A DNA stretch of 64,000 nt, from assembly GCF_054482525.1 (NCBI RefSeq), contig NZ_CM137006.1. The stretch is one strand, 5' to 3'. The notes under the pieces were generated by a model that was given only the letters and a program-made list of their open reading frames with translations, searched no databases and was not told where the DNA came from. Shown here piece by piece: positions 13,314 through 29,769 of the stretch. A program made the translations under genes and the position numbers. Every line of letters starts with the position of its first letter. The stretch's first letter is position 1.

Positions 13314-13316
13314 CGC

Positions 13317-13598
13317 ATGACAGCAGAAGAAAAAAGCGTCCTGTCGCTTTTCATGATTGGGGTGCTGATTGTTGTCGGCAAGGTGCTTGCCGGTGGTGAA
13401 CCCATCACCCCGCGTCTGTTTATCGGGCGCATGTTGCTCGGTGGTTTTGTCTCGATGGTTGCCGGTGTTGTTCTGGTGCAGTTTCCTGACCTGTCACTGC
13501 CTGCGGTGTGCGGCATCGGCTCCATGCTGGGTATCGCCGGTTATCAGGTGATTGAGATTGCCATTCAGCGCCGTTTTAAGGGCAGGGGGAAACCGTAA
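13317..13598 (+). CDS. Y: P2-like holin gpY (93 aa)
   Basis: 93-aa ORF with hydrophobic transmembrane segments and basic C-terminus, upstream of endolysin. Confidence 0.88.
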   Translation: MTAEEKSVLSLFMIGVLIVVGKVLAGGEPITPRLFIGRMLLGGFVSMVAGVVLVQFPDLSLPAVCGIGSMLGIAGYQVIEIAIQRRFKGRGKP

Positions 13599-14095
13599 TG
13601 CCGGTAATTAACACGCATCAGAATATCGCCGCCTTTCTCGACATGCTGGCCGTGTCCGAAGGGACGGCGAATCATCCGCTGACGAAAAACCGGGGCTATG
13701 ACGTGATAGTCACCGGACTGGACGGGAAGCCGGAAATTTTCACCGACTACAGTGACCACCCGTTCGCGCATGGCCGACCGGCGAAGGTGTTTAACCGTCG
13801 TGGTGAAAAATCCACGGCCTCCGGTCGCTATCAGCAGCTTTACCTGTTCTGGCCGCACTACCGTAAACAGCTTGCCCTGCCTGATTTCAGTCCGTTGTCA
13901 CAGGACAGACTCGCCATTCAGTTGATCCGCGAACGCGGTGCACTGGATGACATCCGGGCGGGACGCATTGAGCGCGCCATTTCACGCTGTCGCAATATCT
14001 GGGCGTCCCTGCCGGGTGCCGGTTACGGTCAGCGTGAGCATTCACTGGAAAAACTGGTCACCGTCTGGCGTACCGCTGGCGGCGTACCGGCTTAA
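13598..14095 (+). CDS. K: P2-like endolysin/lysozyme gpK (165 aa)
   Basis: 165-aa ORF MPVINTHQNIAAFLDMLAVSEGT...; position after holin. Confidence 0.9.
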   Translation: MPVINTHQNIAAFLDMLAVSEGTANHPLTKNRGYDVIVTGLDGKPEIFTDYSDHPFAHGRPAKVFNRRGEKSTASGRYQQLYLFWPHYRKQLALPDFSPLSQDRLAIQLIRERGALDDIRAGRIERAISRCRNIWASLPGAGYGQREHSLEKLVTVWRTAGGVPA

Positions 14096-14109
14096 ACGGA
14101 GTAAACACC

Positions 14110-14535
14110 ATGAAGAAATTATCCCTTTCACTGATGCTGAACGTGTCGCTGGCACTGATGCCGGCACTGTCCCTGATTTACCCGCAGAGCGTGGCCGTCA
14201 ATTTTGTCGCCGCCTGGGCGATTCTGGCGACGGTTATCTGTGTGGTTGCCGGTGGTGTCGGCGTGTATGCCACTGAGTATGTGCTGGAACGCTACGGGCG
14301 GGAGCTGCCGCCGGAATCGCTGGCCGTGAAGATTGTCGCGTCGCTGTTTTTGCAGCCGGTGCCGTGGCGCAGACGGGCGGCGGCTCTGGTGGTGATGGTG
14401 GCGACGTTTATCTCGCTGGTCGCTGCCGGGTGGATTTTTACCGCGCTGATTTACCTCGTGGCGTCGGTGTTCTTCCGGCTGATACGTACGGCCTGCCGTC
14501 AGTGTTTTGAGGAGCGGCAACCATGTCAAGGCTGA
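14110..14535 (+). CDS. lysA: P2-like lysis accessory protein LysA (141 aa, membrane protein)
   Basis: 141-aa hydrophobic ORF after K. Confidence 0.85.
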   Translation: MKKLSLSLMLNVSLALMPALSLIYPQSVAVNFVAAWAILATVICVVAGGVGVYATEYVLERYGRELPPESLAVKIVASLFLQPVPWRRRAAALVVMVATFISLVAAGWIFTALIYLVASVFFRLIRTACRQCFEERQPCQG

Positions 14536-14948
14536 TGATTGTACTGATTGTGTTGTTATCGCTGGCGGTGGCGGGTCTGTTTCTGGTGAAACACAAAAAT
14601 GCCAGCCTGCGCACCTCACTGGACAGGGCGAACAATGTCGCCAGCGGGCAGCAGACGACCATCACCATGCTGAAAAACCAGCTTCATGTTGCCCTTACCA
14701 GGGCAGACAAAAACGAGCTGGCGCAGGTGGCACTGCGTCAGGAGCTGGAGAACGCCGCGAAGCGTGAAGCACAGCGCGAGAAAACCATCACGAGGTTACT
14801 TAATGAAAACGAAGATTTTCGCCGCTGGTACGGCGCTGACCTGCCTGATGCTGTGCGCCGGTTGCACCAGCGCCCCGCCTGCACCGACGCCAGTGATTGT
14901 CCACAACGCCTGCCCGAAAGTGAGCCTTTGCCCGATGCCGGGCAGTGA
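14523..14948 (+). CDS. lysB: P2-like LysB (Rz-like inner-membrane spanin, 141 aa)
   Basis: 141-aa ORF with N-terminal TM segment and coiled-coil-like body; overlaps lysA end. Confidence 0.85.
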   Translation: MSRLMIVLIVLLSLAVAGLFLVKHKNASLRTSLDRANNVASGQQTTITMLKNQLHVALTRADKNELAQVALRQELENAAKREAQREKTITRLLNENEDFRRWYGADLPDAVRRLHQRPACTDASDCPQRLPESEPLPDAGQ

Positions 14949-15093
14949 CCCGCAGACGAACGGCGATTTAAGTGCCGATATCCGGCAGCTTGAGAACGCG
15001 CTGGCGCGCTGTGCCAGCCAGGTAAAAATGATTAAACACTGTCAGGACGAAAACGATGCTCAAACCCGACAGCCTGCGCAGGGCGCTGACTGA
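14803..15093 (+). CDS. lysC: P2-like LysC (Rz1-like outer-membrane lipoprotein spanin, 96 aa) embedded in +1 frame of lysB
   Basis: MKTKIFAAGTALTCLMLCAGC lipoprotein signal with lipobox LCAGC; Pro-rich; starts inside lysB and extends beyond it. Confidence 0.8.
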   Translation: MKTKIFAAGTALTCLMLCAGCTSAPPAPTPVIVHNACPKVSLCPMPGSDPQTNGDLSADIRQLENALARCASQVKMIKHCQDENDAQTRQPAQGAD

Positions 15094-15523
15094 TGCCGTC
15101 ACGGTACTGAAAACTAACCCCGATATGCTGCGGATATTCGTGGATAACGGGAGTATTGCCTCCACACTGGCGACGTCGCTGTCATTCGAAAAGCGTTACA
15201 CGCTCAATGTCATTGTGACCGACTTTACCGGTGATTTTGACCTGCTCATTGTGCCGGTGCTGGCGTGGCTGCGGGAAAATCAGCCCGACATCATGACCAC
15301 CGACGAAGGCCAGAAAAAGGGCTTCACGTTTTATGCAGACATCAACAATGACAGCAGCTTTGATATCAGTATCAGCCTGATGCTGACCGAGCGCACGCTG
15401 GTCAGTGAGGTTGACGGTGCGCTGCATGTGAAGAATATCCCGGAACCCCCGCTGCCGGAGCCGGTCACCCGCCCGATGGAGCTGTATATCAATGGCGAAC
15501 TGGTGAGCAAGTGGGATGAATGA
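15056..15523 (+). CDS. R: P2-like tail completion protein gpR (155 aa)
   Basis: 155-aa ORF; size and order match P2 R. Confidence 0.88.
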   Translation: MLKPDSLRRALTDAVTVLKTNPDMLRIFVDNGSIASTLATSLSFEKRYTLNVIVTDFTGDFDLLIVPVLAWLRENQPDIMTTDEGQKKGFTFYADINNDSSFDISISLMLTERTLVSEVDGALHVKNIPEPPLPEPVTRPMELYINGELVSKWDE

Positions 15524-15968
15524 GTTTAAGCGTTTTGAAGACCGGCTGACCGGACTTATTGAATCGCTGTCACCGTCAGGGCGTCGGCGACTGAGTGCCG
15601 AACTGGCGAAACGTCTGCGGCAGAGTCAGCAGCGTCGGGTGATGGCTCAGAAAGCCCCGGACGGCACACCCTACGCGCCACGCCAGCAGCAGAGCGCCAG
15701 AAAAAAGACCGGTCGTGTTAAGCGAAAAATGTTTGCGAAACTTATCACCAGTCGTTTTTTGCATATCCGCGCCAGCCCGGAACAGGCATCAATGGAATTT
15801 TACGGCGGGAAGTCACCGAAAATCGCCAGCGTGCATCAGTTCGGCCTGTCGGAAGAAACCCGGAAAGACGGTAAGAAAATTGATTATCCGGCGCGTCCTC
15901 TGCTCGGCTTTACCGGTGAGGATGTGCAGATGATTGAAGAGATTATCCTGGCTCACCTTGAGCGTTAG
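15516..15968 (+). CDS. S: P2-like tail completion protein gpS (150 aa)
   Basis: 150-aa ORF overlapping R end; P2 order. Confidence 0.88.
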   Translation: MNEFKRFEDRLTGLIESLSPSGRRRLSAELAKRLRQSQQRRVMAQKAPDGTPYAPRQQQSARKKTGRVKRKMFAKLITSRFLHIRASPEQASMEFYGGKSPKIASVHQFGLSEETRKDGKKIDYPARPLLGFTGEDVQMIEEIILAHLER

Positions 15969-15998
15969 TTTTATCCAGGCAGAGGCTGATGCGCAATT

Positions 15999-16033
15999 AA
16001 ACATTGAGCGGCCATGCTGGTCGCTCAATGTTT
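15999..16033. terminator. Bidirectional stem-loop between S (+) and the reverse-strand moron
   Basis: 12-bp perfect inverted repeat aaacattgagcg...cgctcaatgttt with 11-nt loop, between convergent genes. Confidence 0.45.
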
Positions 16034-16039
16034 AGAGGT

Positions 16040-16825
16040 TTATGAGTGATTTTTATTTGATGCTTTGTATTCTACAACCTTCTTATTGGCGTAAAGGAAT
16101 TTTGTATATGACAGGAATATAACCAGACCTGAAATGAAATAGATGAGGGATATTATTAATAATGCTTTTTTTTGGCTGTTATTATCTTTAATCTCCTGAC
16201 TTAACCATTCCGAGTCCTCCTCGTTTAGCTGTAAGAGATTATTGCAGGCGATCTCAGGAAGTGTGTCTTTTATAAATACGTTTCGTAGCCTCTTGCAATC
16301 GGCAAGGCTATAAGTTTTATTGAATTCAACTGTTTTATTGTTGAAGGATAAAAGAACTTTGTCACTATAAACATAGTACATCATATTTTTATATGGTATG
16401 CCTATGGCATCTCTTACTATAGCGGATTGTTTGTTGTGTATATAACATGCGAAGAGAATATAAATAATGCTGGACAGAATTACAATTATTGTTTTAATTA
16501 TGTGTGGTGGTTTTGTTATGTCACCCCAGAAGCGAGTAAGAAAAAAATACGATGTTTTTAGTTTTCCATCAATCAGCCCCTGCTGTATCATTCTCACATC
16601 TTCGATGCCTGATACATTGATTCCGTTAATTATTTTAAATAGTTGAATGTCGCGCCATTTTTTGTCGAGCATTTTTAACTTTCTGTCTGAATACTCAAAA
16701 TTGAAATGATGTGCAATAAACCTCATAAGATTACTTTTACCAAAGGTAACAAATGTTAATGCTATTAATAAAAATAGATACAAAGAGATAAACCACCACG
16801 CATTAGTCACATTATCACTGAACAT
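16040..16825 (-). CDS. Moron: predicted membrane protein (261 aa, about three hydrophobic segments) in the S-V intergenic slot
   Basis: Opposite strand to the late operons; strongly AT-rich, Lys/Asn/Ile-rich; hydrophobic segments WWFISLYLFLLIALTFVTF, IIKTIIVILSSIIYILFACYI, ALLIISLIYFISGLVIFLSY. Confidence 0.7.
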   Translation of the reverse strand: MFSDNVTNAWWFISLYLFLLIALTFVTFGKSNLMRFIAHHFNFEYSDRKLKMLDKKWRDIQLFKIINGINVSGIEDVRMIQQGLIDGKLKTSYFFLTRFWGDITKPPHIIKTIIVILSSIIYILFACYIHNKQSAIVRDAIGIPYKNMMYYVYSDKVLLSFNNKTVEFNKTYSLADCKRLRNVFIKDTLPEIACNNLLQLNEEDSEWLSQEIKDNNSQKKALLIISLIYFISGLVIFLSYTKFLYANKKVVEYKASNKNHS

Positions 16826-16908
16826 TACGCTCTCCTCGAATGTTGTATGGTCGTTCTACAAATGAATCCAGATAGCATAACTTTTATATATTGTGCAATC
16901 TCACACGC

Positions 16909-17544
16909 ATGAACACTCTCGCAAATACTCAGGAACTCGCGCGCGCACTGCGCAACATGATCCGCACCGGCCTTGTCGTCGAAACCGACCTTAATGCCGG
17001 TCGCTGCCGTGTGCAGACCGGCGGCATGTGCACCGACTGGCTTCAGTGGCTGACCCATCGCGCCGGGCGTTCGCGCACATGGTGGGCACCTTCCGTGGGG
17101 GAACAGGTGCTGATTCTGGCCGTGGGTGGTGAACTCGACACGGCGTTCGTTCTGCCGGGGATTTATTCCGGCGATAACCCCGCGCCGTCTGCGTCGGCGG
17201 ATGCCCTGCATATCCGTTTCCCTGACGGGGCGGTGATTGAGTATGAACCTGAAACCAGCGCGCTCACGGTAAGCGGAGTTAAAACGGCCAGCGTGACGGC
17301 TTCTGATTCTGTTACTGCCACGGTGCCGGTGGTCATGGTGAAAGCATCAACCCGCATCACCCTGGACACGCCGGAGGTGGTCTGCACCAACAGGCTGATT
17401 ACCGGCACGCTGGAAGTACAGAAGGGCGGGACGATGCGCGGCAACATTGAACACACCGGCGGTGAACTCTCATCAAACGGTAAGGTACTGCATACCCATA
17501 AACACCCCGGCGACAGCGGCGGCACAACAGGGAGTCCTCTATGA
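16909..17544 (+). CDS. V: P2-like baseplate spike protein gpV (211 aa)
   Basis: Start at MNTLANTQELARALRNMIRTG (ATG 16909); 211 aa. Confidence 0.9.
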   Translation: MNTLANTQELARALRNMIRTGLVVETDLNAGRCRVQTGGMCTDWLQWLTHRAGRSRTWWAPSVGEQVLILAVGGELDTAFVLPGIYSGDNPAPSASADALHIRFPDGAVIEYEPETSALTVSGVKTASVTASDSVTATVPVVMVKASTRITLDTPEVVCTNRLITGTLEVQKGGTMRGNIEHTGGELSSNGKVLHTHKHPGDSGGTTGSPL

Positions 17545-17888
17545 CAGCGCGTTATCTCGGAATGAATCGCAGTGATGGCCTGACTGTCACTGACCTTGAG
17601 CATATCAGCCAGAGTATCGGCGATATCCTGCGCACACCGGTCGGCTCACGGGTGATGCGTCGTGATTACGGCTCGTTGCTGGCATCAATGATTGACCAGC
17701 CGCAGACCCCGGCGCTTGAGTTGCAGATTAAGGTCGCCTGTTACATGGCGGTGCTGAAATGGGAACCCCGCGTCACCCTGTCATCCGTCACCACTGAGCG
17801 CAGTTTTGACGGGCGAATGACGGTCACGTTAACCGGCCAGCACAACGACACCGGCCAGCCACTTTCGTTAACCATCCCTGTGAGTTGA
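17541..17888 (+). CDS. W: P2-like baseplate protein gpW (115 aa)
   Basis: 115-aa ORF, overlapping V stop. Confidence 0.9.
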   Translation: MTARYLGMNRSDGLTVTDLEHISQSIGDILRTPVGSRVMRRDYGSLLASMIDQPQTPALELQIKVACYMAVLKWEPRVTLSSVTTERSFDGRMTVTLTGQHNDTGQPLSLTIPVS

Positions 17889-17892
17889 AACC

Positions 17893-18801
17893 ATGCCGAT
17901 TATCGACCTGAACCAGCTACCCGCACCGGATGTGGTCGAGGAGCTGGACTTTGAAACCATTCTTGCCGAACGCAAGGCGACACTGATTTCCCTTTACCCG
18001 GAAGACCAGCAGGAGGCGGTCGCCCGTACCCTGACGCTGGAATCCGAGCCTCTCGTCAAACTGCTGGAGGAAAATGCTTATCGTGAGCTTATCTGGCGTC
18101 AGCGTGTGAATGAGGCCGCACGGGCGGTGATGCTGGCCTGTGCCGCCGGTAATGACCTTGATGTGATTGGTGCCAATTACAACACCACGCGCCTGATTAT
18201 CACTCCGGCAGATGATTCGACTATCCCGCCGACACCGGCAGTGATGGAATCTGACACCGATTATCGTCTGCGTATTCAGCAGGCGTTTGAGGGCTTAAGC
18301 GTCGCCGGGTCGGTGGGGGCCTATCAGTATCATGGTCGCAGTGCTGACGGGCGTGTCGCGGATATCTCTGTCACCAGTCCGTCTCCGGCCTGCGTCACCA
18401 TCTCCGTGCTGTCACGTGAAAATAACGGCGTCGCATCCGAAGACCTGCTGGCCGTGGTGCGTAACGCCCTTAATGGCGAGGACGTCAGGCCGGTGGCCGA
18501 CCGCGTGACCGTGCAGTCTGCCGCCATCGTTGAATACCAGATAAACGCCACGCTGTATCTTTACCCTGGTCCCGAAAGCGAACCCATTCGCGCTGCCGCC
18601 GTGAAAAAACTGGAAGCGTATATCACGGCACAGCACCGGCTGGGGCGCGACATCCGTCTGTCTGCCATTTATGCCGCTTTGCATGTGGAAGGCGTGCAGC
18701 GTGTCGAACTGGCTGCACCGCTGGCCGACATCGTGCTCAACAGTACGCAGGCGTCTTTCTGTACCGAATACAGCGTCGTGACCGGAGGCTCGGATGAGTG
18801 A
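17893..18801 (+). CDS. J: P2-like baseplate assembly protein gpJ (302 aa)
   Basis: 302-aa ORF; P2 order. Confidence 0.9.
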   Translation: MPIIDLNQLPAPDVVEELDFETILAERKATLISLYPEDQQEAVARTLTLESEPLVKLLEENAYRELIWRQRVNEAARAVMLACAAGNDLDVIGANYNTTRLIITPADDSTIPPTPAVMESDTDYRLRIQQAFEGLSVAGSVGAYQYHGRSADGRVADISVTSPSPACVTISVLSRENNGVASEDLLAVVRNALNGEDVRPVADRVTVQSAAIVEYQINATLYLYPGPESEPIRAAAVKKLEAYITAQHRLGRDIRLSAIYAALHVEGVQRVELAAPLADIVLNSTQASFCTEYSVVTGGSDE

Positions 18802-19405
18802 TTCGCGACTGCTGCCGACCGGCTCATCGCCGCTTGAAGTCGCCGCCGCAAAAGCCTGTGCGGAAATTGAAAAAACGCCGGTCAGTATTCGTGAGCTGTG
18901 GAACCCGGATACCTGTCCGGCAAATCTGCTGCCGTGGCTGGCGTGGTCATTTTCGGTTGACCGCTGGGATGATAAGTGGCCGGAAGCGACAAAACGCGCT
19001 GTTATCCGCGATGCGTATTTCATTCACTGCCATAAGGGCACTATAGGCGCAATCCGGCGTGTGGTGGAGCCGCTCGGCTATCTGATTGAGGTGAGGGAGT
19101 GGTGGCAGCTCAACGAGGAGCCGGGGACGTTCCGCATCGTTGTTGGCGTGCTTGAGCAGGGTATTACCGAGGAAATGTATCAGGAGCTGGAGCGCCTCGT
19201 TGCTGATGCAAAACCGGCAAGCCGCCATCTGACGGGACTGGCTATCAGTTTAAGTACAACCGGCAACATTTTTGCCAGTGCGGGATGCTATCACGGTGAC
19301 GCCCTGACGGTTTATCCCTACACCCCGGAGGCCATTATTGTCGGAGGGGATTATTTCCCGGCCTCGGCCATTCATTTAATTGATAACCTGAGAGTAAACG
19401 CATGA
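18794..19405 (+). CDS. I: P2-like baseplate protein gpI
   Basis: ORF overlapping J end and H start; exact start codon uncertain. Confidence 0.8.
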   Translation: MSDSRLLPTGSSPLEVAAAKACAEIEKTPVSIRELWNPDTCPANLLPWLAWSFSVDRWDDKWPEATKRAVIRDAYFIHCHKGTIGAIRRVVEPLGYLIEVREWWQLNEEPGTFRIVVGVLEQGITEEMYQELERLVADAKPASRHLTGLAISLSTTGNIFASAGCYHGDALTVYPYTPEAIIVGGDYFPASAIHLIDNLRVNA

Positions 19406-20700
19406 CAGTGAAATACTACGCCATTCTGACTAATCAGGGCGCAGCACGGCTGGCTAACGCGACGATGCTCGGCAGTAAGCTGAATCTGACGCAAATGGCC
19501 GTTGGTGATGCGAATGGTGTCTTGCCGACACCAGACCCGGCACAGACAAAACTGATTAATCAGAAACGCATCGCGCCGCTGAATCTTCTGAGTGTTGACC
19601 CGAACAACCAGAGCCAGATTATTGCGGAGCAAATCATCCCTGAGAACGAGGGCGGATTCTGGATCCGTGAGATTGGGCTTTATGATGATGAAGGCGTACT
19701 CATTGCGGTGGCGAACTGCCCGGAAACGTACAAACCGCAGTTACAGGAAGGCAGCGGTCGTACCCAGACTATCCGCATGATTCTGGTTGTCACGAATACC
19801 GAAGCCATCACGCTGAAAATCGACCCGTCGGTGGTACTGGCGACCCGTAAATACGTGGATGATAAAGTCCTGGAATTAAAGCTGTATGTGGATGACCAGA
19901 TGAGAAACCACATTGCCGCACAGGATCCTCATACCCAGTATGCACAGAAACATAATCCGACATTTACCGGAGAACCAAAAGCGCCGACGCCTGCCGCAGG
20001 AAATAACACCACGCGGATTGCGACCACTGCGTTTGTACAGGCCGCTATTACCGCTCTGATTAACGGTGCCCCTGACACGCTGGACACACTGAAAGAAATT
20101 GCCGCAGCTATCAACAATGACCCGAAATTCAGCACCACCATTAACAATGCGCTGTCAGGTAAGCAGCCACTGGATGAGACGCTGACTCATTTGAGTGGAA
20201 AGGATGTTGCCGGTCTTCTCGCATACCTTGGTTTGGGAGAAGGCTCTGCATTGCCGGTTGGTGTGCCTGTTCCGTGGCCTTCAGCCACTCCGCCAACGGG
20301 GTGGCTAAAATGTAACGGAGCAGTATTTTCTTCTGAAAAGTACCCAAATCTGGCAAAGGCTTACCCAACATTAAAATTACCAGATTTACGCGGTGAATTT
20401 ATTCGTGGCTGGGATGATGGGCGCGGGATTGACTCTGGTCGTAACTTATTATCTGCACAGAATGATGCAATTCAGAATATTGTTGGTTCTTTTGGGCGTA
20501 CCCAGCTTTTTAGAGACGTACTTAGTTCAGGGCCATTTAGTCAACATGGGCAAGTATTATCTACAGGTCTAAAGGAAGCCGAAATTATTGAGGGTTATGG
20601 CGCTTATAACTGGACATTCGACGCATCTCGCTCAGTTCGCACAGCATCTGAAACCCGCTCCCGTAACATCGCCTTTAATTATATTGTGAGGGCTGCATGA
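19402..20700 (+). CDS. H: Tail fibre protein gpH (432 aa): P2-like constant N-terminus fused to the currently expressed variable C-terminal cassette
   Basis: N-terminus MTVKYYAILTNQGAARLANA...; C-terminal region (WPSATPPTGWLKCNGAVFSSEKYPNLAKAY...LPDLRGEFIRGW) is tail-collar-like; inversion crossover site lies at codons ~276-280. Confidence 0.88.
   Translation: MTVKYYAILTNQGAARLANATMLGSKLNLTQMAVGDANGVLPTPDPAQTKLINQKRIAPLNLLSVDPNNQSQIIAEQIIPENEGGFWIREIGLYDDEGVLIAVANCPETYKPQLQEGSGRTQTIRMILVVTNTEAITLKIDPSVVLATRKYVDDKVLELKLYVDDQMRNHIAAQDPHTQYAQKHNPTFTGEPKAPTPAAGNNTTRIATTAFVQAAITALINGAPDTLDTLKEIAAAINNDPKFSTTINNALSGKQPLDETLTHLSGKDVAGLLAYLGLGEGSALPVGVPVPWPSATPPTGWLKCNGAVFSSEKYPNLAKAYPTLKLPDLRGEFIRGWDDGRGIDSGRNLLSAQNDAIQNIVGSFGRTQLFRDVLSSGPFSQHGQVLSTGLKEAEIIEGYGAYNWTFDASRSVRTASETRSRNIAFNYIVRAA
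20228..20242. repeat. Left inversion crossover site of tail-fibre segment (inside H)
   Basis: TTGGTTTGGGAGAAG; perfect inverted copy at 22160-22174; weak resemblance to gix/hix half-sites. Confidence 0.6.
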
Positions 20701-21302
20701 TAAGTAAAGCTGTATTAAATAATGAACTCATCGCCACAAAGGCCGGAGACATTACCGTTTATAATTATGATGGTGAAACACGGGAATATATTTCCACATC
20801 AACTGAATATCTTGCTGTGGGTGTCGGTATCCCGGCATGTTCCTGTTTAGATGCTCCTGGCTCATATAAAGCTGGTTATGCAATTTGCCGTTCTGCAGAT
20901 TTTAACTCATGGGAATATGTGCCAGACCATCGCGGTGAAATCGTCTATAGCACCGAAACAGGAGAATCAAAAGAAATCACAGTTCCGGGTGATTACCCTG
21001 AAAATACAACCACTATCGCCCCGTTAACGTCATACGATAAATGGGATGGTGAGAAATGGGTGACCGATACTGAGGCACAGCATAACGCCGCAGTAGACGC
21101 GGCAGAAGTACGGCGCCAGTCACTGATTGATGCTGCTATGGCTTCCATTAGTCTGATTCAGCTGAAATTGCAGGCCGGGCGGAAGCTGACGCAGGCAGAA
21201 ACAACCCGGCTTAACGCTGTGCTGGATTACATTGACGCGGTGACTGCAACAGATACCAGCACCGCGCCGGATGTCATCTGGCCTGAACTACCGGAGGCGT
21301 AG
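20697..21302 (+). CDS. G: Tail fibre assembly chaperone gpG (Tfa), currently expressed orientation
   Basis: 201-aa ORF directly after H; C-terminal ...TATDTSTAPDVIWPELPEA typical of Tfa proteins. Confidence 0.85.
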   Translation: MISKAVLNNELIATKAGDITVYNYDGETREYISTSTEYLAVGVGIPACSCLDAPGSYKAGYAICRSADFNSWEYVPDHRGEIVYSTETGESKEITVPGDYPENTTTIAPLTSYDKWDGEKWVTDTEAQHNAAVDAAEVRRQSLIDAAMASISLIQLKLQAGRKLTQAETTRLNAVLDYIDAVTATDTSTAPDVIWPELPEA

Positions 21303-21717
21303 GCCATTCAATATCTGGAGCACTGGCGGTATCAACCAGTTCCAGTGCGTCCAGATAATCCAGCCATAAATTATATTGTTCCAGCTCGTAACCTTTCAGA
21401 CGACCAATAGCAGCTTTGCCAGGCCACTGATGGGTATTGATGTAGGTATTGACTTCTGAAACCAAAGATATCTTTTTCATTTCAGCCGCCAGCATCTCAT
21501 CCTCTTTTGAAGGCGGCGGGGAATTAATCCATATTGGCCGTCCTGAACTGTCAGCGCCAATTTCTTTCCCTTCTGGATGCAGCCCAAGAAATTGCTCATA
21601 TGTTTCTCTGGTAATTTCAATAACATCATCAGGAAGCGTTCCCGCATCCTCATATTCTGGAAACAATTCTTGCAGATAAAAACTTTTACTTGCGGGTGAA
21701 AAGAATACTGAGTTCAT
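21274..21717 (-). CDS. Alternative tail fibre assembly chaperone (Tfa') for the inverted orientation
   Basis: 147-aa reverse-strand ORF; C-terminus ...DTASAPDIEWPTPPVVQAR parallels gpG; convergent with G and overlapping its 3' end. Confidence 0.75.
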   Translation of the reverse strand: MNSVFFSPASKSFYLQELFPEYEDAGTLPDDVIEITRETYEQFLGLHPEGKEIGADSSGRPIWINSPPPSKEDEMLAAEMKKISLVSEVNTYINTHQWPGKAAIGRLKGYELEQYNLWLDYLDALELVDTASAPDIEWPTPPVVQAR

Positions 21718-21719
21718 TC

Positions 21720-22159
21720 TTACCGTCCAATGATTAACGCTGAGACGCTGGTATCTGAAGGAAAGGCTGCATTCAGTGGTTTGTCGACTTTGAACACAAT
21801 CGTATTATTCCCCCTGACAGCGGCAAAAGAACAAACCGCCGTCGCGTATGAACCTGTAATATTACTGGATACACCACCATAAGCTGTTGTTGATACCAGA
21901 GGGATAACGCCCAGCACCTTATTAGGAAATACAAAGGGCAATGTGGCTGTGGCAATATAAGACTTATTAGAACCTGTAATGGCATAAGCATTATCAGTCA
22001 TTCCATTCATCGCCACTGGACCGCTTATACTTACAGTAACCATCTGAATGATTAGCCCGTCAGGTTGACGAATCACAAAATTTCCATTGCCACCAGTAAC
22101 CGTCCAGAAAGACATATCAGGGATTTGGTTTTCCCCGTTGCCCACATTTCGTTTTGCCG
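21720..22159 (-). CDS. Alternative (currently silent) tail-fibre C-terminal cassette, promoterless, expressed only after inversion
   Basis: Reverse-strand reading frame continuous from the right crossover site; shares the GLGE junction frame with H; no independent start expected. Confidence 0.65.
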
Positions 22160-22174
22160 CTTCTCCCAAACCAA
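22160..22174. repeat. Right inversion crossover site of tail-fibre segment
   Basis: CTTCTCCCAAACCAA, exact reverse complement of 20228-20242. Confidence 0.6.
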
Positions 22175-22241
22175 CGTTTAAGAAAATGCAGAGATTACGG
22201 CTAACTGGCATCATCCCCGGTTTTTATTCAGGGGATCCATC

Positions 22242-22835
22242 ATGCTTATTGGCTATGTCCGCGTGTCAACAAATGACCAGAATACGGAATTGCAGCGTAA
22301 CGCGCTGGAGTGTGCAGGATGTGAGCTTATTTTTGAGGATAAAATCAGCGGCACGAAGTCCGACCGACCGGGACTGAAAAAACTGCTCAGGACATTATCG
22401 GAGGGGGATACACTGGTGGTCTGGAAGCTGGACCGGCTGGGGCGTAGTATGCGGCATCTGGTCATTCTGGTTGAGGAACTGCGCGAACGCGGCGTTAATT
22501 TTCGCAGCCTGACGGATGCTATTGATACCAGCACGCCGATGGGGCGTTTTTTCTTTCATGTGATGGGTGCCCTGGCTGAAATGGAGCGAGAACTCATTGT
22601 CGAGAGGACACGCGCCGGACTGGAAGCGGCCAGAGCCAAAGGTCGTATTGGTGGCAGACGACCGAAACTCACCGCGAGTGAGTGGGAGCAGGCCGGGCGT
22701 TTGCTGGCTGCAGGGGAGTCACGTCAACGCGTGGCACTGATTTTTGATATTGGTCTGTCCACGCTCTATAAAAAATTTCCCTCATCAGCGACAAAGAATA
22801 AATTGTGTCATCCCTTAGCCAACCGGGACAAATAG
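22242..22835 (+). CDS. Serine recombinase, DNA invertase of the Pin/Gin/Hin/Cin family (197 aa)
   Basis: N-terminal catalytic domain MLIGYVRVSTNDQNTELQRNAL (active-site Ser in YVRVST), C-terminal HTH; positioned just outside the right crossover site. Confidence 0.9.
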   Translation: MLIGYVRVSTNDQNTELQRNALECAGCELIFEDKISGTKSDRPGLKKLLRTLSEGDTLVVWKLDRLGRSMRHLVILVEELRERGVNFRSLTDAIDTSTPMGRFFFHVMGALAEMERELIVERTRAGLEAARAKGRIGGRRPKLTASEWEQAGRLLAAGESRQRVALIFDIGLSTLYKKFPSSATKNKLCHPLANRDK

Positions 22836-22894
22836 CCTGACATCTCCGGCACAACTGAAAATATCACTCACCCATTAACCACGGAGTTAAACGG

Positions 22895-24085
22895 ATGAGT
22901 GACTATCATCACGGCGTGCAGGTGCTGGAGATTAACGACGGCACCCGCGTCATTTCCACCGTATCCACTGCCATTGTCGGCATGGTCTGCACGGCCAGCG
23001 ATGCGGATGCGGAAACCTTCCCCCTCAATAAACCTGTGCTGATTACCAATGTGCAGAGCGCAATTGCAAAGGCCGGTAAAAAAGGCACGCTGGCGGCATC
23101 GTTGCAGGCCATCGCTGACCAGTCAAAACCGGTCACCGTTGTCGTGCGCGTGGAAGACGGCACTGGTGATGACGAGGAAACGAAACTCGCGCAGACCGTT
23201 TCCAATATCATCGGCACCACCGACGAAAACGGTCAGTACACCGGACTGAAAGCCCTGCTGGCGGCGGAGTCGGTAACCGGTGTTAAACCGCGTATTCTCG
23301 GTGTGCCGGGACTGGATACCAAAGAGGTGGCTGTTGCACTGGCATCCGTCTGTCAGAAGCTGCGCGCTTTCGGATATATCAGCGCGTGGGGCTGTAAGAC
23401 TATTTCCGAGGTGAAAGCCTACCGCCAGAATTTCAGCCAGCGTGAGCTGATGGTCATCTGGCCGGATTTCCTCGTATGGGATACGGTCACCAGTACCACC
23501 GCCACCGCGTATGCCACCGCCCGTGCACTGGGGCTGCGTGCCAAAATCGACCAGGAGCAGGGCTGGCATAAAACGCTGTCCAATGTCGGGGTGAACGGTG
23601 TTACCGGCATCAGCGCATCTGTATTCTGGGATTTGCAGGAGTCCGGCACCGATGCTGACCTGCTTAACGAGTCAGGTGTCACTACGCTGATTCGCCGCGA
23701 CGGTTTCCGCTTCTGGGGTAACCGTACCTGCTCTGATGACCCGCTGTTCCTCTTTGAAAACTACACCCGCACCGCGCAGGTGCTGGCCGACACGATGGCT
23801 GAGGCGCACATGTGGGCGGTGGACAAGCCCATCACCGCAACGCTGATTCGCGACATCGTTGACGGCATCAATGCCAAATTCCGTGAGCTGAAAACAAACG
23901 GCTATATCGTGGATGCGACCTGCTGGTTCAGCGAAGAATCCAACGATGCGGAAACCCTCAAGGCCGGAAAACTGTATATCGACTACGACTATACACCGGT
24001 GCCTCCTCTTGAAAACCTGACCCTGCGCCAGCGTATTACCGATAAATACCTGGCAAATCTGGTCACCTCGGTTAACAGCAATTAA
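22895..24085 (+). CDS. FI: P2-like contractile tail sheath protein gpFI (396 aa)
   Basis: 396-aa ORF MSDYHHGVQVLEINDGTRVIS...; P2 size and order. Confidence 0.93.
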   Translation: MSDYHHGVQVLEINDGTRVISTVSTAIVGMVCTASDADAETFPLNKPVLITNVQSAIAKAGKKGTLAASLQAIADQSKPVTVVVRVEDGTGDDEETKLAQTVSNIIGTTDENGQYTGLKALLAAESVTGVKPRILGVPGLDTKEVAVALASVCQKLRAFGYISAWGCKTISEVKAYRQNFSQRELMVIWPDFLVWDTVTSTTATAYATARALGLRAKIDQEQGWHKTLSNVGVNGVTGISASVFWDLQESGTDADLLNESGVTTLIRRDGFRFWGNRTCSDDPLFLFENYTRTAQVLADTMAEAHMWAVDKPITATLIRDIVDGINAKFRELKTNGYIVDATCWFSEESNDAETLKAGKLYIDYDYTPVPPLENLTLRQRITDKYLANLVTSVNSN

Positions 24086-24097
24086 GGAGCCTGACCG

Positions 24098-24616
24098 ATG
24101 GCAATGCCGCGCAAACTCAAGTTAATGAACGTCTTTCTGAACGGCTACAGCTATCAGGGCGTCGCGAAGTCCGTCACGCTACCAAAACTGACCCGTAAGC
24201 TCGAAAACTATCGCGGTGCGGGGATGAACGGCAGCGCACCGGTAGACCTCGGCCTTGATGACGATGCGCTGTCAATGGAGTGGTCGCTCGGTGGCTTCCC
24301 GGATTCGGTTATCTGGGAGCTTTACGCCGCAACCGGTGTGGATGCCGTACCGATTCGTTTTGCAGGCTCTTACCAGCGCGACGATACCGGCGAAACGGTG
24401 GCCGTCGAGGTGGTCATGCGTGGACGTCAGAAAGAAATCGACACCGGCGAGGGCAAACAGGGAGAAGACACCGAGTCGAAAATCTCCGTGGTCTGCACCT
24501 ATTTCCGGCTGACGATGGACGGTAAGGAGCTGGTCGAAATCGACACCATCAACATGATTGAGAAGGTGAACGGCGTCGACCGGCTGGAGCAACACCGCCG
24601 CAATATCGGCCTGTGA
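24098..24616 (+). CDS. FII: P2-like tail tube protein gpFII (172 aa)
   Basis: 172-aa ORF after FI. Confidence 0.92.
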   Translation: MAMPRKLKLMNVFLNGYSYQGVAKSVTLPKLTRKLENYRGAGMNGSAPVDLGLDDDALSMEWSLGGFPDSVIWELYAATGVDAVPIRFAGSYQRDDTGETVAVEVVMRGRQKEIDTGEGKQGEDTESKISVVCTYFRLTMDGKELVEIDTINMIEKVNGVDRLEQHRRNIGL

Positions 24617-24672
24617 TTTTCATCCGGTCAGCCTGACTGACCGGTTAACCCCGATTCAGAAGTGAGAAAACC

Positions 24673-24948
24673 ATGAACAAAGAAAATGTGATTACCCTGG
24701 ACAATCCGGTCAAGCGTGGTGAGCAGGTTATCGAACAGGTCACGCTGATGAAACCTAATGCCGGGACGCTGCGCGGTGTCAGTCTGGCAGCGGTCGCGAA
24801 CTCCGAAGTCGATGCACTGATTAAGGTGTTGCCGCGCATGACGGCACCGATGCTGACCGCGCAGGAAGTCGCCGCACTGGAACTGCCTGACCTTGTGGCG
24901 CTGGCCGGTAAGGTGGTCGGTTTTTTGTCGCCGAACTCGGTGCAGTGA
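24673..24948 (+). CDS. E: P2-like tail assembly chaperone gpE (91 aa)
   Basis: 91-aa ORF; contains slippery run GGTTTTTTG near its 3' end. Confidence 0.88.
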   Translation: MNKENVITLDNPVKRGEQVIEQVTLMKPNAGTLRGVSLAAVANSEVDALIKVLPRMTAPMLTAQEVAALELPDLVALAGKVVGFLSPNSVQ

Positions 24949-25100
24949 CGTTTCCGAAAAATCTCTCGGTCGATGACCTGATGGCGGATGTGGCAGTGAT
25001 ATTTCACTGGCCGCCATCAGAACTGTATCCCATGAGCCTGACCGAACTCATCACATGGCGCGAAAAGGCGCTCCGGCGAAGCGGAAACACGAATGAGTAA
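24673..25100 (+). CDS. E+E': gpE+E' extended tail chaperone made by programmed -1 frameshift at TTTTTTG (~24917-24925)
   Basis: -1 frame is open from the slippery site to TAA at 25098-25100, overlapping the T start; analogous to P2 E/E' and lambda G/GT. Confidence 0.6.
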
Positions 25101-27540
25101 CAATGTAAAATTACAGGTATTGCTCAGGGCTGTTGACCAGGCATCCCGCCCGTTTAAATCCATCCGTACAGCGAGCAAATCGCTGTCGGGGGATATCCGG
25201 GAAACACAAAAATCACTGCGCGAGCTGAACGGTCACGCATCCCGTATTGAGGGATTTCGCAAGACAAGTGCACAGCTCGCCGTGACTGGTCATGCACTTG
25301 AAAAGGCTCGGCAGGAAGCCGAAGCCCTTGCCACACAGTTTAAAAACACCGAACGTCCGACCCGTGCTCAGGCGAAAGTGCTGGAATCCGCAAAGCGTGC
25401 GGCGGAGGACTTACAGGCGAAATATAACCGCCTGACGGATTCCGTTAAACGCCAGCAGCGGGAACTGGCCGCTGTGGGAATTAATACCCGCAATCTTGCA
25501 CATGATGAGCAGGGACTGAAAAACCGTATCAGTGAAACCACCGCACAGATTAACCGTCAGCGTGACGCGCTGGCGCGTGTCAGTGCGCAACAGGCCAAAC
25601 TTAACGCAGTCAAACAGCGTTATCAGGCCGGAAAAGAACTGGCAGGAAATATGGCCTCAGTGGGCGCTGCCGGTGTGGGGATTGCTGCTGCGGGAACGAT
25701 GGCTGGTGTTAAGTTGCTGATGCCCGGTTATGAGTTTGCGCAGAAAAACTCAGAATTGCAGGCTGTGCTCGGTGTGGCAAAAGACTCCGCCGAAATGGCT
25801 GCACTACGCAAGCAGGCGCGCCAGCTCGGTGACAATACTGCCGCCTCGGCGGATGATGCAGCCGGTGCACAGATTATCATTGCGAAAGCCGGTGGGGATG
25901 TTGATGCCATTCAGGCGGCAACGCCGGTCACGCTGAATATGGCACTGGCGAACCGCCGCACGATGGAGGAAAACGCCGCCCTGCTGATGGGGATGAAATC
26001 CGCCTTTCAGCTTTCAAACGATAAAGTCGCTCATATCGGGGATGTTCTCTCCATGACGATGAACAAAACCGCCGCCGATTTTGACGGCATGAGCGATGCG
26101 CTGACCTATGCCGCACCTGTGGCAAAAAATGCCGGTGTCAGCATTGAAGAAACCGCCGCAATGGTCGGGGCGCTGCATGATGCAAAAATAACAGGCTCAA
26201 TGGCGGGGACGGGAAGCCGTGCCGTGTTAAGCCGCCTGCAGGCACCGACGGGAAAAGCATGGGATGCACTCAAAGAGCTTGGTGTGAAAACCTCAGACAG
26301 TAAGGGAAACACCCGACCAGTATTTACCATTCTGAAAGAAATGCAGGCCAGTTTTGAGAAAAACCGGCTCGGTACTGCCCAGCAGGCTGAATACATGAAA
26401 ACCATTTTCGGGGAGGAGGCCAGCTCAGCCGCCGCCGTGCTGATGACTGCCGCGTCAACCGGAAAGCTGGACAAACTGACCGCTGCGTTTAAAGCCTCAG
26501 ACGGGAAGACCGCAGAGCTGGTAAATATCATGCAGGACAACCTCGGCGGTGACTTTAAGGAGTTTCAGTCCGCTTATGAGGCGGTGGGGACTGACCTGTT
26601 TGACCAGCAGGAAGGCGCACTGCGTAAGCTCACACAGACGGCCACAAAGTATGTGTTAAAACTCGACGGCTGGATACAGAAAAACAAATCACTGGCGTCA
26701 ACCATTGGCCTCATTGCCGGTGGCGCGCTGGCGCTGACTGGCATCATCGGTGCAATTGGTCTTGTAGCCTGGCCGGTTATCACCGGCATCAATGCCATCA
26801 TCGCGGCAGCAGGCGCAATGGGGGCAATCTTCACGACGGTTGGCAGTGCCGTTATGACGGCCATCGGGGCGATTAGCTGGCCGGTTGTGGCCGTGGTGGC
26901 CGCTATTGTCGCCGGGGCGTTACTTATCCGTAAATACTGGGAGCCTGTCAGCGCATTCTTTGGCGGAGTGGTTGAAGGGCTGAAAGCGGTATTTGCGCCG
27001 GTGGGGGAACTGTTCACGCCACTTAAGCCGCTGTTTGACTGGCTGGGTGAAAAGTTACAGGCCGCGTGGCAGTGGTTTAAAAACCTGATTGCCCCGGTTA
27101 AAGCCACCCAGGACACCCTGAACCGTTGCCGTGACACGGGCGTCATGTTCGGGCAGGCACTGGCTGACGCGCTGATGCTGCCGCTTAATGCGTTCAACAA
27201 ACTGCGCAGTGGTATTGACTGGGTACTGGAAAAACTCGGTGTTATCAACAAAGAGTCAGACACACTTGACCAGACCGCCGCCAGAACTCAAGCCGCCACA
27301 TATGGCAGCGGTGATTATATTCCGGCGACCAGCTCTTATGCAGGCTATCAGGCTTATCAGCCGGTCACGGCACCGGCTGGCCGCTCTTATGTAGACCAGA
27401 GTAAAAACGAATATCACATCAGCCTGACGGGTGGTACTGCGCCGGGGACACAGCTTGACCGCCAGTTACAGGATGCGCTCGAAAAATACGAGCGGGATAA
27501 ACGTGCGCGCGCCCGTGCCAGCATGATGCATGACGGTTAA
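25093..27540 (+). CDS. T: P2-like tail tape measure protein gpT (815 aa)
   Basis: 815-aa Ala/Gly-rich coiled-coil protein; P2 size and order. Confidence 0.93.
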   Translation: MSNNVKLQVLLRAVDQASRPFKSIRTASKSLSGDIRETQKSLRELNGHASRIEGFRKTSAQLAVTGHALEKARQEAEALATQFKNTERPTRAQAKVLESAKRAAEDLQAKYNRLTDSVKRQQRELAAVGINTRNLAHDEQGLKNRISETTAQINRQRDALARVSAQQAKLNAVKQRYQAGKELAGNMASVGAAGVGIAAAGTMAGVKLLMPGYEFAQKNSELQAVLGVAKDSAEMAALRKQARQLGDNTAASADDAAGAQIIIAKAGGDVDAIQAATPVTLNMALANRRTMEENAALLMGMKSAFQLSNDKVAHIGDVLSMTMNKTAADFDGMSDALTYAAPVAKNAGVSIEETAAMVGALHDAKITGSMAGTGSRAVLSRLQAPTGKAWDALKELGVKTSDSKGNTRPVFTILKEMQASFEKNRLGTAQQAEYMKTIFGEEASSAAAVLMTAASTGKLDKLTAAFKASDGKTAELVNIMQDNLGGDFKEFQSAYEAVGTDLFDQQEGALRKLTQTATKYVLKLDGWIQKNKSLASTIGLIAGGALALTGIIGAIGLVAWPVITGINAIIAAAGAMGAIFTTVGSAVMTAIGAISWPVVAVVAAIVAGALLIRKYWEPVSAFFGGVVEGLKAVFAPVGELFTPLKPLFDWLGEKLQAAWQWFKNLIAPVKATQDTLNRCRDTGVMFGQALADALMLPLNAFNKLRSGIDWVLEKLGVINKESDTLDQTAARTQAATYGSGDYIPATSSYAGYQAYQPVTAPAGRSYVDQSKNEYHISLTGGTAPGTQLDRQLQDALEKYERDKRARARASMMHDG

Positions 27541-27554
27541 GGAGGTGACGAAAA

Positions 27555-28034
27555 ATGATGCTCGCGTTAGGTATGTTTGTTTTTATGCGCCAGACGCTGC
27601 CACACCAGACCATGCAGCGTGAATCAGATTATCGCTGGCCGTCAAATTCCCGTATCGGTAAACGGGATGCCTTTCAGTTTCTCGGTGTTGGCGAGGAAAA
27701 CATCACGCTTGCCGGTGTGCTTTATCCCGAGCTGACCGGCGGAAAGCTGACGATGACCACGCTCAGGCTGATGGCAGAGGAAGGTCGGGCGTGGCCGTTG
27801 CTGGATGGCACCGGCATGATTTACGGCATGTATGTCATCAGCAGGGTGAGTGAAACAGGGAGTATTTTCTTTGCAGACGGCACACCCCGAAAAATTGATT
27901 TTACGCTGTCGCTCACCCGCGTTGATGAATCACTGGCCGCGCTTTATGGCGATATCGGTAAACAGGCGGAATCGCTCATCGGTAAGGCTGGCAGTATGGC
28001 GACTAAATTCACGGGTATGACGGGGGCGGGATAA
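27555..28034 (+). CDS. U: P2-like tail protein gpU (159 aa)
   Basis: 159-aa ORF after T. Confidence 0.9.
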   Translation: MMLALGMFVFMRQTLPHQTMQRESDYRWPSNSRIGKRDAFQFLGVGEENITLAGVLYPELTGGKLTMTTLRLMAEEGRAWPLLDGTGMIYGMYVISRVSETGSIFFADGTPRKIDFTLSLTRVDESLAALYGDIGKQAESLIGKAGSMATKFTGMTGAG

Positions 28035-29197
28035 TGCTGGATGCGCTGACATTTGATGCAGGCAGTACGCTGACGCCGGATTACATGCTGATGCTCGACA
28101 GCAGGGATATTACCGGCAATATCAGCGACCGTCTGATGAGCATGACTCTGACGGATAACCGGGGCTTTGAGGCTGACCAGCTTGATATTGAACTGAACGA
28201 TGCCGACGGGCAGGTCGAACTGCCGGTTCGTGGCGCTGTCCTGACGGTGTATATCGGCTGGAAAGGTTTTGCCCTGGTATGCAAAGGGAAATTCACCGTT
28301 GATGAGGTAGAGCACCGGGGCGCGCCGGATGTGGTCACCATCCGGGCCCGGAGTGCAGATTTTCGTGGCACGCTCAATTCCCGCCGTGAAGGCTCCTGGC
28401 ATGACACCACGCTCGGTGCGATTGTTGAGGCGATAGCCTCCCGTAACAGGCTGGAAGCCAGTGTCGCTCCATCACTGGCCGGAATTAAAATCCCGCACAT
28501 CGACCAGTCGCAGGAGTCTGATGCTAAATTCCTGACCCGTCTTGCTGAACGCAACGGCGGTGAGGTGTCGGTAAAAATGGGAAAACTGCTGTTTCTCAAA
28601 GCGGGGCAGGGGGTGACGGCCAGCGGTAAAAAAATCCCGCAGATTACCATCACCCGCAGCGACGGCGACCGCCATCATTTTGCGATTGCTGACCGTGGAG
28701 CCTATACCGGCGTAACGGCAAAGTGGTTACACACCAAAGACCCGAAGCCACAAAAGCAGAAGGTAAAACTGAAGCGCAAAAAGAAAGAGAAACACCTGCG
28801 CGCACTGGAGCACCCGAAAGCAAAACCGGTCACGCAGAAGAAAGTGCCAAAAGTACCGGAAGCGCGCGAAGGTGAATACATGGCCGGTGAGGCTGACAAC
28901 GTTTTTGCCCTGACTACGGTATATGCCACGAAAGCGCAGGCCATGCGCGCCGCTCAGGCGAAGTGGGATAAACTGCAACGGGGTGTGGCGGAGTTCTCCA
29001 TCAGCCTGGCTACCGGTCGGGCAGATATTTACACGGAAACGCCGGTCAAGGTATCAGGCTTTAAGCGCGTCATAGACGAGCAGGACTGGACAATCACTAA
29101 GGTGACACATTTTCTGAATAATAGCGGCTTCACGACGTCCTTAGAGCTTGAGGTCAGGCTTTCTGATGTGGAGTACGAAACAGAAGATGATGAGTGA
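28034..29197 (+). CDS. D: P2-like tail protein gpD (387 aa)
   Basis: 387-aa ORF after U. Confidence 0.9.
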   Translation: MLDALTFDAGSTLTPDYMLMLDSRDITGNISDRLMSMTLTDNRGFEADQLDIELNDADGQVELPVRGAVLTVYIGWKGFALVCKGKFTVDEVEHRGAPDVVTIRARSADFRGTLNSRREGSWHDTTLGAIVEAIASRNRLEASVAPSLAGIKIPHIDQSQESDAKFLTRLAERNGGEVSVKMGKLLFLKAGQGVTASGKKIPQITITRSDGDRHHFAIADRGAYTGVTAKWLHTKDPKPQKQKVKLKRKKKEKHLRALEHPKAKPVTQKKVPKVPEAREGEYMAGEADNVFALTTVYATKAQAMRAAQAKWDKLQRGVAEFSISLATGRADIYTETPVKVSGFKRVIDEQDWTITKVTHFLNNSGFTTSLELEVRLSDVEYETEDDE

Positions 29198-29278
29198 TGT
29201 CTATTATTTATCTGTTTGTTTTATAAGGATAAATTAACTAAAATGGCACCATCAACAAAACCGGAAGAGGTGCTCGCG

Positions 29279-29497
29279 ATGTTTCATTGTCCTTTATGCC
29301 AGCATGCCGCACATGCGCGTACAAGCCGCTATATCACTGACACGACAAAAGAGCGTTATCACCAGTGCCAGAACGTGAATTGCAGCGCCACGTTCATCAC
29401 TTATGAGTCGGTACAGCGATACATCGTGAAGCCGGGAGAAGTCCACGCCGTAAGGCCGCACCCGTTGCCGTCAGGGCAGCAAATTATGTGGATGTAA
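29279..29497 (+). CDS. ogr: Ogr zinc-finger late-gene transcriptional activator (72 aa)
   Basis: MFHCPLCQHAAHARTSRYITDTTKERYHQCQNVNCSATF with Cys4 zinc finger; the provided ORF starts 21 codons upstream. Confidence 0.9.
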   Translation: MFHCPLCQHAAHARTSRYITDTTKERYHQCQNVNCSATFITYESVQRYIVKPGEVHAVRPHPLPSGQQIMWM

Positions 29498-29510
29498 TTA
29501 CATACAGGAA

Positions 29511-29534
29511 GCCCCTCAGTCGAGGGGCTTTTTT
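29511..29534 (+). terminator. Rho-independent terminator after ogr
   Basis: gcccctc-agtc-gaggggc hairpin followed by TTTTTT. Confidence 0.7.
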
Positions 29535-29598
29535 GTCGATGTGGTCAATGTGTGGACGTGACCAGAAATAAATCCTTTTATTTCATTGTATTACGCGT

Positions 29599-29625
29599 AA
29601 AAAATAAGCCCGTGTAAGGGAGATT
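29599..29625. other. attR: P2 att core (prophage right junction, attR) next to yegQ
   Basis: AAAAAATAAGCCCGTGTAAGGGAGATT matches the 27-bp P2 attachment core as I recall it; lies between ogr and the first host gene. Confidence 0.75.
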
Positions 29626-29769
29626 ACACAGGCTAAGGAGGTGGTTCCTGGTACAGCTAGCATTTTATGGGTTATGTTTTTCAGCGAAACGGATGATAAC
29701 CTTAATAAATGCAGCTGTATGTGATCGGTTTCTAAGAATTTTCCATCCGGGAAAAATAATCGAAATTAA

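Follow-up and report, generated by a model that had tools for sequence, protein, structure and literature searches.

The P2-type E/E+E' programmed -1 frameshift site of an Escherichia coli prophage, and a candidate upstream stimulator

We found that a P2-like (Peduovirus) prophage beside yegQ in E. coli almost certainly has, in its gene E, the site of programmed -1 ribosomal frameshifting that is known from the P2-type E/E+E' gene pair. The feature is already known: it is the textbook P2 recoding site, identical to the reference. From position 24877 to at least position 25140 of the window (the whole stretch of 64,000 nucleotides that was analysed), the DNA is 100% identical to phage P2 (NC_001895), a segment that extends over the site and the whole of E' into the start of T. 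The alignment with P2 E/E' that the initial annotation had suggested as a check is thus in its favor. That the shift occurs is a point that we take from the literature on P2, whose site is the same. In its passages on P2, PMC3091744 (citing Christie et al. 2002 and Xu et al. 2004) attributes the 91-aa E and the 142-aa E+E' to a -1 shift at TTTTTTG. Where they deal with this phage, both PMC3091744 and PMC5009743 cite Christie et al. 2002 (J Bacteriol 184:6522) for the experimental demonstration of the E+E' frameshift.

The extents of E, the heptamer and the E' frame are given in Table 1, together with the surrounding tail genes. According to the open reading frame listing and its translation, E begins with the ATG at 24673 and stops with the TGA at 24946-24948. 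Near its 3' end, the codons are GTG GTC GGT TTT TTG TCG, the peptide is VVGFLSPNSVQ*, and the 91-aa gpE has the C-terminal end AGKVVGFLSPNSVQ*. Relative to the E frame, the heptamer T TTT TTG has the register X XXY YYZ that tandem tRNA slippage requires, with UUU (Phe) as the P-site codon and UUG (Leu) as the A-site codon. The initial annotation had correctly placed a slippery heptamer near the 3' end of E, but the sequence it quoted, GGTTTTTTG, has nine bases (24919-24927), of which the last seven are the heptamer. The coordinates that it assigned to the whole feature, 24917-25100, are essentially right.

The -1 frame is shut by a TAA at 24909-24911 and opens at 24912. Given that the 0 frame stops at 24946-24948, the zone in which a shift would be productive is only about 35 nt long (24912-24945, where both frames are open), and the heptamer falls within it. 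No -1 stop codon follows directly on the slippery site; the frame stays open until 25098-25100. The post-shift reading GTC GCC GAA corresponds to VAELGAVTFPKNL...NTNE*, which is 57 codons long, and together with E codons 1-85 it makes a gpE+E' fusion of 142 aa. The -1 frame had been described as ending in a stop that overlaps the start of T, and this is the case: the T start codon (ATG 25093-25095) and the E' stop overlap inside ATGAGTAA.

Table 1. Features of the tail operon and of the frameshift region (positions in the window)
Feature	Position	Strand	Basis
FI, tail sheath, 396 aa	22895-24085	+	Pfam Phage_sheath_1, Phage_sheath_1C, Gp18_domIII_N; P2 length, collinear
FII, tail tube, 172 aa, directly upstream of E	24098-24616	+	Pfam Phage_tube (E 2e-60); P2 FII homologue
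Gene E, 0 frame, tail assembly chaperone, 91 aa	24673-24948	+	Translation, Pfam, PHROG, P2 homology
Shine-Dalgarno-like AAGGTGGTC	24910-24918	+	Predicted duplex with 16S 3' end, -14.0 kcal/mol
Slippery heptamer T TTT TTG	24921-24927	+	Register with E; identical to P2 site
E' coding part, -1 frame, 57 codons (VAELG...NTNE) + TAA	24927-25100	+	Translation, Pfam, PHROG
Hairpin inside E', 10-bp stem (CUGAUGGCGG...CCGCCAUCAG)	24978-25020	+	100-nt fold, z = -3.07
T, tape measure, 815 aa	25093-27540	+	Pfam PhageMin_Tail; P2 T homologue, equal length
U, tail gene, 159 aa	27555-28034	+	Pfam Phage_P2_GpU
D, tail/baseplate hub, 387 aa, last FETUD gene	28034-29197	+	Pfam Phage_GPD; collinear with P2

In the mechanism that we propose, most ribosomes would read on through GGU UUU UUG UCG to the UGA at 24946-24948 and yield gpE (91 aa). 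A minority would pause on the heptamer while tRNA-Phe is paired with UUU (P site) and tRNA-Leu with UUG (A site), after which both tRNAs could move back by one base onto U UUU UU. Reading would continue in the -1 frame with GUC GCC GAA and end at the UAA at 25098-25100, producing the 142-aa gpE+E' with the junction ...VVGFL-VAELG.... Such tandem slippage predicts a tryptic junction peptide VVGFLVAELGAVTFPK, with Leu at fusion position 85. By analogy with lambda gpG/gpGT, the common E part might coat the tape measure protein T, the E' extension might recruit the tube protein FII, and tail assembly would depend on the fixed gpE : gpE+E' ratio that the frameshift sets. It is this analogy that suggests chaperone roles for gpE and gpE+E'. 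In P2, gpE+E' arises at a level of several percent, reportedly about 10%; E' reportedly proved essential in complementation, and both products are reported to be essential.

A different route to a fusion would be the addition of an extra U by RNA polymerase on the run of six T, or slippage of the P-site tRNA-Phe alone. Either event would give the junction ...GFF-VAELG... and the peptide VVGFFVAELGAVTFPK, which has Phe rather than Leu at position 85. Run lengths of about 8-9 or more are usually needed for productive transcriptional slippage. The site does have six T in a row, although this is shorter than the usual length, and a simple terminator scan flagged a hairpin plus T-run at 24900-24921. 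However, the hairpin upstream of the T run has a z of -0.7 and is not conserved. Moreover, it is the X XXY YYZ register that relatives conserve and not the length of the run, since one homologue has A AAT TTT, with four T only. The P2 sources (NC_001895, and PMC3091744 and PMC5009743 in their statements on P2) establish the fusion, not which slippage route produces it. We consider the extra-U or P-site-only route very unlikely, and prefer tandem slippage on the heptamer. The terminator-like hairpin and T-run at 24900-24921 were also considered as an attenuator or slippage element in their own right, and were rejected on the same grounds of a poor z and lack of conservation.

The relationship to P2 is close throughout this region. 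A megablast search with positions 24098-25300 gave 82 phage records, and the identity is 95-99% in 74 cases; they belong to Peduovirus and comprise P2 along with relatives found in E. coli and Yersinia. The gene order, the heptamer, the reading frames and the product lengths of 91 and 142 aa are those of P2 E and E+E'. The 5' two-thirds of E differ from P2 at 11 nucleotides, which changes two residues (S29N and E63A), so that gpE is 98% identical to P2 gpE at the amino acid level, whereas E' is 100% identical. Also unlike P2, the host prophage carries other cargo, has a tail-fibre segment that is invertible, and is interrupted in gene A by an IS3. In the annotation of NC_001895, E occupies 19430-19705 and E+E' occupies 19430-19857, joined from two pieces. 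Its note on E+E' reads 'shares amino terminus with gpE; -1 frameshift; essential tail protein', and the feature 'site of -1 translational frameshift' comes one base after the last G of the heptamer, on its 3' side.

Both parts of the fusion belong to recognized protein families. The E part matches Pfam PF10109 (Phage_TAC_7) over residues 7-85 with 46.4 bits (cutoff 25), and the description of this family mentions 'tail assembly chaperone proteins E, or 41 or 14'. The E' part matches PF06528 (Phage_P2_GpE) over fusion residues 104-139 with 76.3 bits (cutoff 23; E 1e-21). Among the PHROG tail families, E matches PHROG 103 (E 5e-45), and E' matches PHROG 1756 and 6416.

The split between two frames is conserved far beyond the close relatives of P2. 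In a tblastn search, 417 phage records match the fusion, from hosts that include Burkholderia, Klebsiella, Ralstonia, Escherichia, Yersinia, Salmonella, Pseudomonas, Mannheimia and Vibrio. The full-length matches among those listed fall into two pieces, which is what two reading frames would lead one to expect. We compared 18 loci of Peduoviridae, consisting of 16 diverse loci, P2 and the window. E' is in the -1 frame relative to E in all 18 loci, even though the identity of E drops to 32%, and an in-register slippery heptamer is found at the homologous Phe-Leu codons in all of them. The heptamer is T TTT TTG in 15 of the 18; the exceptions are Smp131 (T TTT TTT), VHML (T TTT TTC) and phage 503458 (A AAT TTT). 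The heptamer-encoded Phe84 is invariant in the fusion alignment, and most of the 18 loci have an x-A-E motif in the -1 frame directly 3' of the heptamer.

The E/E' pairs of other Peduoviridae, such as phage 186 orf51/orf52 (gene H), Wphi, KS5/KS14/KL3, Smp131 and RSA1, share the -1 offset and T TTT TTG or a close variant, and their E' ends at or near the start of the tape-measure gene, as it does here. They differ from the present pair in protein sequence (32-75% identity) and in the number of codons that gpE has beyond the site (about 6 to 24), and some have no upstream Shine-Dalgarno-like (SD-like) sequence.

Larger sequence collections agree with this comparison. An alignment of 15 sequences had no stretch conserved enough for a search for relatives, and a 6-sequence alignment yielded 80 further IMG/VR contigs, all of the Klebsiella-type subfamily and at 82-97% identity; T TTT TT(G/A) is in register in 80 of these 80 contigs from a single subfamily. 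We added a scan with a DNA pattern that leaves the region upstream of the heptamer unconstrained, which gave 97 distinct viral-contig sequences that are considered below. In cellular genomes, the segment occurs in 1581 of 5426 complete E. coli genomes (about 29%), nearly always at 95-99% identity.

These data bear on the concern that the heptamer has arisen by chance, or that E and E' are the halves of a decayed gene that was split by a frameshift mutation in a dead prophage. TTTTTTG is not enriched in the window, where it occurs 17 times compared to 16.5 expected from shuffles, and the prophage does have an IS3 in gene A. The motif alone means nothing, and the significance of the heptamer rests on its position and conservation. 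Regarding position, only one of the 17 copies (24921-24927) combines the register within a long, real ORF (91 open codons upstream), a position only 8 codons from the 0-frame stop and a -1 extension of at least 50 codons, the extension being 57 codons. Regarding conservation, which is the decisive argument against chance, the same split is found in every relative examined and in the 1581 E. coli genomes. In addition, the sequence is identical to that of a functional phage, P2, and curated protein families are matched by both frames. The identity with P2 and the conservation data refute chance or decay, whose probability we regard as practically nil.

A second in-register T TTT TTG occurs at 15755-15761, inside the tail gene S (15516-15968). 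There, a stop closes the -1 frame after 37 codons, and a shift would shorten the product. This copy is probably due to chance.

E' could instead be an independent gene of 51 aa that starts at the GTG at 24945 and needs no recoding. This codon is indeed present in the -1 frame. Moreover, RefSeq/PGAP annotations of E. coli genomes contain a separate CDS from this GTG, called 'GpE family phage tail protein', and many phage records do likewise. However, the predicted anti-SD duplex in front of GTG 24945 amounts to only -2.6 kcal/mol, and the codon is confined to the P2/Wphi group. In other relatives, the first start-like codon is found at codon 13 to 27, with a strong Shine-Dalgarno sequence in none of them. 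In the most distant ones (SEN5, VHML and RSA1), it even lies beyond the start of the conserved DDLMADIA...WPP domain. An independent start also does not fit the conserved x-A-E residues of the -1 frame, which begin right after the heptamer, or the fact that the heptamer and the -1 offset are kept in 98 of 98 loci. The P2 reference record likewise has E+E' as a -1 extension of E, as does the account of P2 in PMC3091744. We reject an independent start, which is extremely unlikely for lack of a credible start codon, given that GTG 24945 is weak and not conserved. E' is best annotated as a frameshift extension of E and not as a separate 51-aa gene.

It follows that the separate-gene calls for E' are a systematic annotation error that affects well over a thousand E. 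coli genomes. One example is the locus from NZ_CP028379.1, whose positions 573-728 correspond to 24945-25100 of the window and PGAP has a separate E' gene from the GTG. Since the segment is present in about 29% of complete E. coli genomes, the point about annotation is general. Otherwise, the site marks the tail operon of the prophage as functional P2 type and has little importance beyond correct annotation.

We also looked at what might stimulate the P2-type shift. Other heptamers are more prone to slippage than U UUU UUG, so a stimulator would be expected. The reporter results in PMC4066793 put heptamers without stimulators in E. coli at 2-10x a background of about 0.05%, well under 1%, and the same part of that paper describes mixed purine/pyrimidine ZZN codons, e.g., UUG, as shifting less well. 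We did not detect a downstream structure: the 70 nt after the heptamer have a z of +0.3 relative to shuffles, with no hairpin 5-9 nt downstream. There is also no shared downstream structure in the relatives, 17 of 18 of which have a z above -1.4.

Immediately upstream of the heptamer is the SD-like sequence AAGGTGGTC, which is a candidate for the stimulator. Its predicted pairing with the 3' end of the 16S rRNA is stronger than what any 16-nt stretch reaches in the 240 nt of E that come before it. The SD-like element is likewise the strongest stretch in 13 of the 18 diverse loci, and in 70% of the 97 distinct viral-contig sequences that were found by the pattern without an upstream constraint. 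In the Klebsiella-type subfamily, GAGGT is invariant in 32 distinct sequence contexts, and neighboring synonymous positions vary. The element is missing altogether in the phiE202-like clade (G-I-F-A-G), and a few relatives have AAA for the Lys codon within it. Its conservation may be at the protein level, as the element encodes a conserved K/E-V-V/I.

The arrangement resembles that of E. coli dnaX (A AAA AAG), which also has a heptamer for tandem slippage and an upstream sequence complementary to the anti-SD. In dnaX, the gap from the SD-like element to the heptamer is 10 nt. By contrast, the gap here is only 2-5 nt, depending on how the pairing is drawn, and the present site also differs from dnaX in that there is no hairpin 5-9 nt downstream. 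For comparison, the spacing range that Sharma et al. searched for SD-like elements, as given in their account of that search, is 6-17 nt. We tentatively suggest that AAGGTGGTC could be conserved as a stimulator that pairs with rRNA, with a spacing that is unusually short compared to dnaX, though we think this the less probable reading of the sequence pattern. If true, an SD-like stimulator would explain how a weak heptamer without downstream structure reaches the P2-type level of frameshifting.

The hairpin inside E' was considered as another potential stimulator. Its stem is a perfect 10-bp inverted repeat (CTGATGGCGG...CCGCCATCAG), and all 10 pairs are kept in the enterobacterial P2/186 group (P2, Wphi, Kp4886-2, 186 and YenM), but are lost in distant relatives. 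The arms encode the conserved peptide motifs LMAD and PPSE. No compensatory changes are present among the relatives that were compared, and the hairpin starts 50 nt past the heptamer, which is too far for a classical stimulator. We rejected it as such on these two grounds, and it may be incidental.

The arrangement of the genes is that known from lambda gpG/gpGT: two overlapping ORFs lie between the major tail or tube gene and the tape measure gene, and a -1 shift towards the end of the first one joins them. The initial annotation had proposed a G/GT-like chaperone arrangement, and the order of FII (tube), E/E' and T (tape measure) agrees with this. We found no sequence similarity of E/E' to lambda gpG/gpT, as the Pfam scan gives only PF10109 and PF06528, and we found no sequence relative of the fusion in the PDB. 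Thus, judging by these searches, E/E' appears to be an analogue of lambda gpG/gpT in arrangement, with no homology detectable at the sequence level. The tail of P2 is contractile, unlike that of lambda. The lambda slippery site is G GGA AAG, with an efficiency of about 3-4%. The gpG/gpGT ratio in lambda is 30:1. In its treatment of lambda and P2, PMC5009743 states that a fixed ratio of the short and long products is needed for tail assembly in lambda, and that in P2 and its relatives frameshifting is 2 to 3 times as efficient as the low-level G-T shift of lambda. The literature named for lambda gpG/gpGT is Levin et al. 1993 and Xu, Hendrix and Duda 2004, 2013 and 2014.

We also looked at the predicted structure of the fusion. 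An AlphaFold model is confident, with a pLDDT of 90.4 and a pTM of 0.80, and a long helix comprising residues 71-89 runs through the junction at 85/86. The model suggests that E' continues the E fold and is not attached by a flexible linker. A Foldseek search of this model against the PDB gave nothing significant. The references considered for the chaperone fold were the HK97 tail assembly chaperone gp10 (PDB 2OB9) and B. subtilis YqbN (3KLU). Overall, the structural searches yielded little, a weak hint of a shared tail assembly chaperone fold and not a proof of it.

The initial annotation had further described the tail-assembly module as intact, and the operon gives every sign of this. The FETUD operon (22815-29625) aligns to P2 17572-24382 with 96.9% identity and no indels, both segments being 6811 nt long, and is collinear with it. 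All six of its ORFs (FI, FII, E, T, U and D) have the lengths that they have in P2, as does ogr. The aligned block extends from the pF promoter region to the attP core, and the pF region is conserved from within the activator-binding dyad onward. The tail module is intact as far as sequence can tell, which does not imply an intact prophage.

Position 1 of the window falls on the ATG of P2 gene A, and window positions 1-2180, 6600-19230 and 22815-29625 match P2 28034-30213, 1-12629 and 17572-24382, respectively, at about 97%. The left end of the prophage (int, C, cox and B) is outside the window. A homologue of the P2 attP core at 29599-29625 is the right prophage end (attR); it adjoins yegQ, which is followed by the E. 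coli genes yegP, baeR and baeS. In E. coli K-12, the cryptic P2 remnant (ogrK/yegZ) occupies this chromosomal position. A terminator-like hairpin on the minus strand (29607-29634) overlaps the attP core homologue.

A complete IS3 of 1258 bp occupies 2180-3437 and is flanked by a 3-bp target duplication, AGC, at 2177-2179 and 3438-3440. Its orfA (2236-2544) and orfB (2541-3407) overlap, and the IS3 has a -1 frameshift motif of its own in this overlap, CCA AAG G at about 2505-2511. The element sits in the last 35 codons of the replication gene A, whose ORF has 738 aa compared to 761 in P2. With this insertion in gene A, the prophage may have a replication defect, even though the tail operon is intact. 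P2 is not SOS-inducible. No complete E. coli genome in the collection matches at least 80% of positions 2100-6650, a query that comprises the IS3 and the adjacent cargo.

The cargo, at 3792-6462, has a low GC content (33%) and consists of two genes that replace P2 orf91/tin/old between gene A and cos. One of them encodes a 555-aa ATPase of the AAA_15/AAA_21 type, with matches in PADLOC to NsnB (2e-52), HEC-03B and AriA (1e-27). The other encodes a 333-aa protein with no Pfam or PADLOC family. The two genes are probably an anti-phage defence pair in a known P2 hotspot.

The tail-fibre region at 19402-22835 also differs from P2. It has H (432 aa) and G (201 aa) on the plus strand, and an alternative assembly gene and fibre C-terminus on the minus strand (21274-21717 and 21720-22214). 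It further contains a Hin/Gin-type serine invertase gene (22242-22835) and a 27-nt inverted repeat at 20216-20242 and 22160-22186. This region is a Mu/P1-like invertible host-range switch that replaces the P2 H/G/Z-fun genes.
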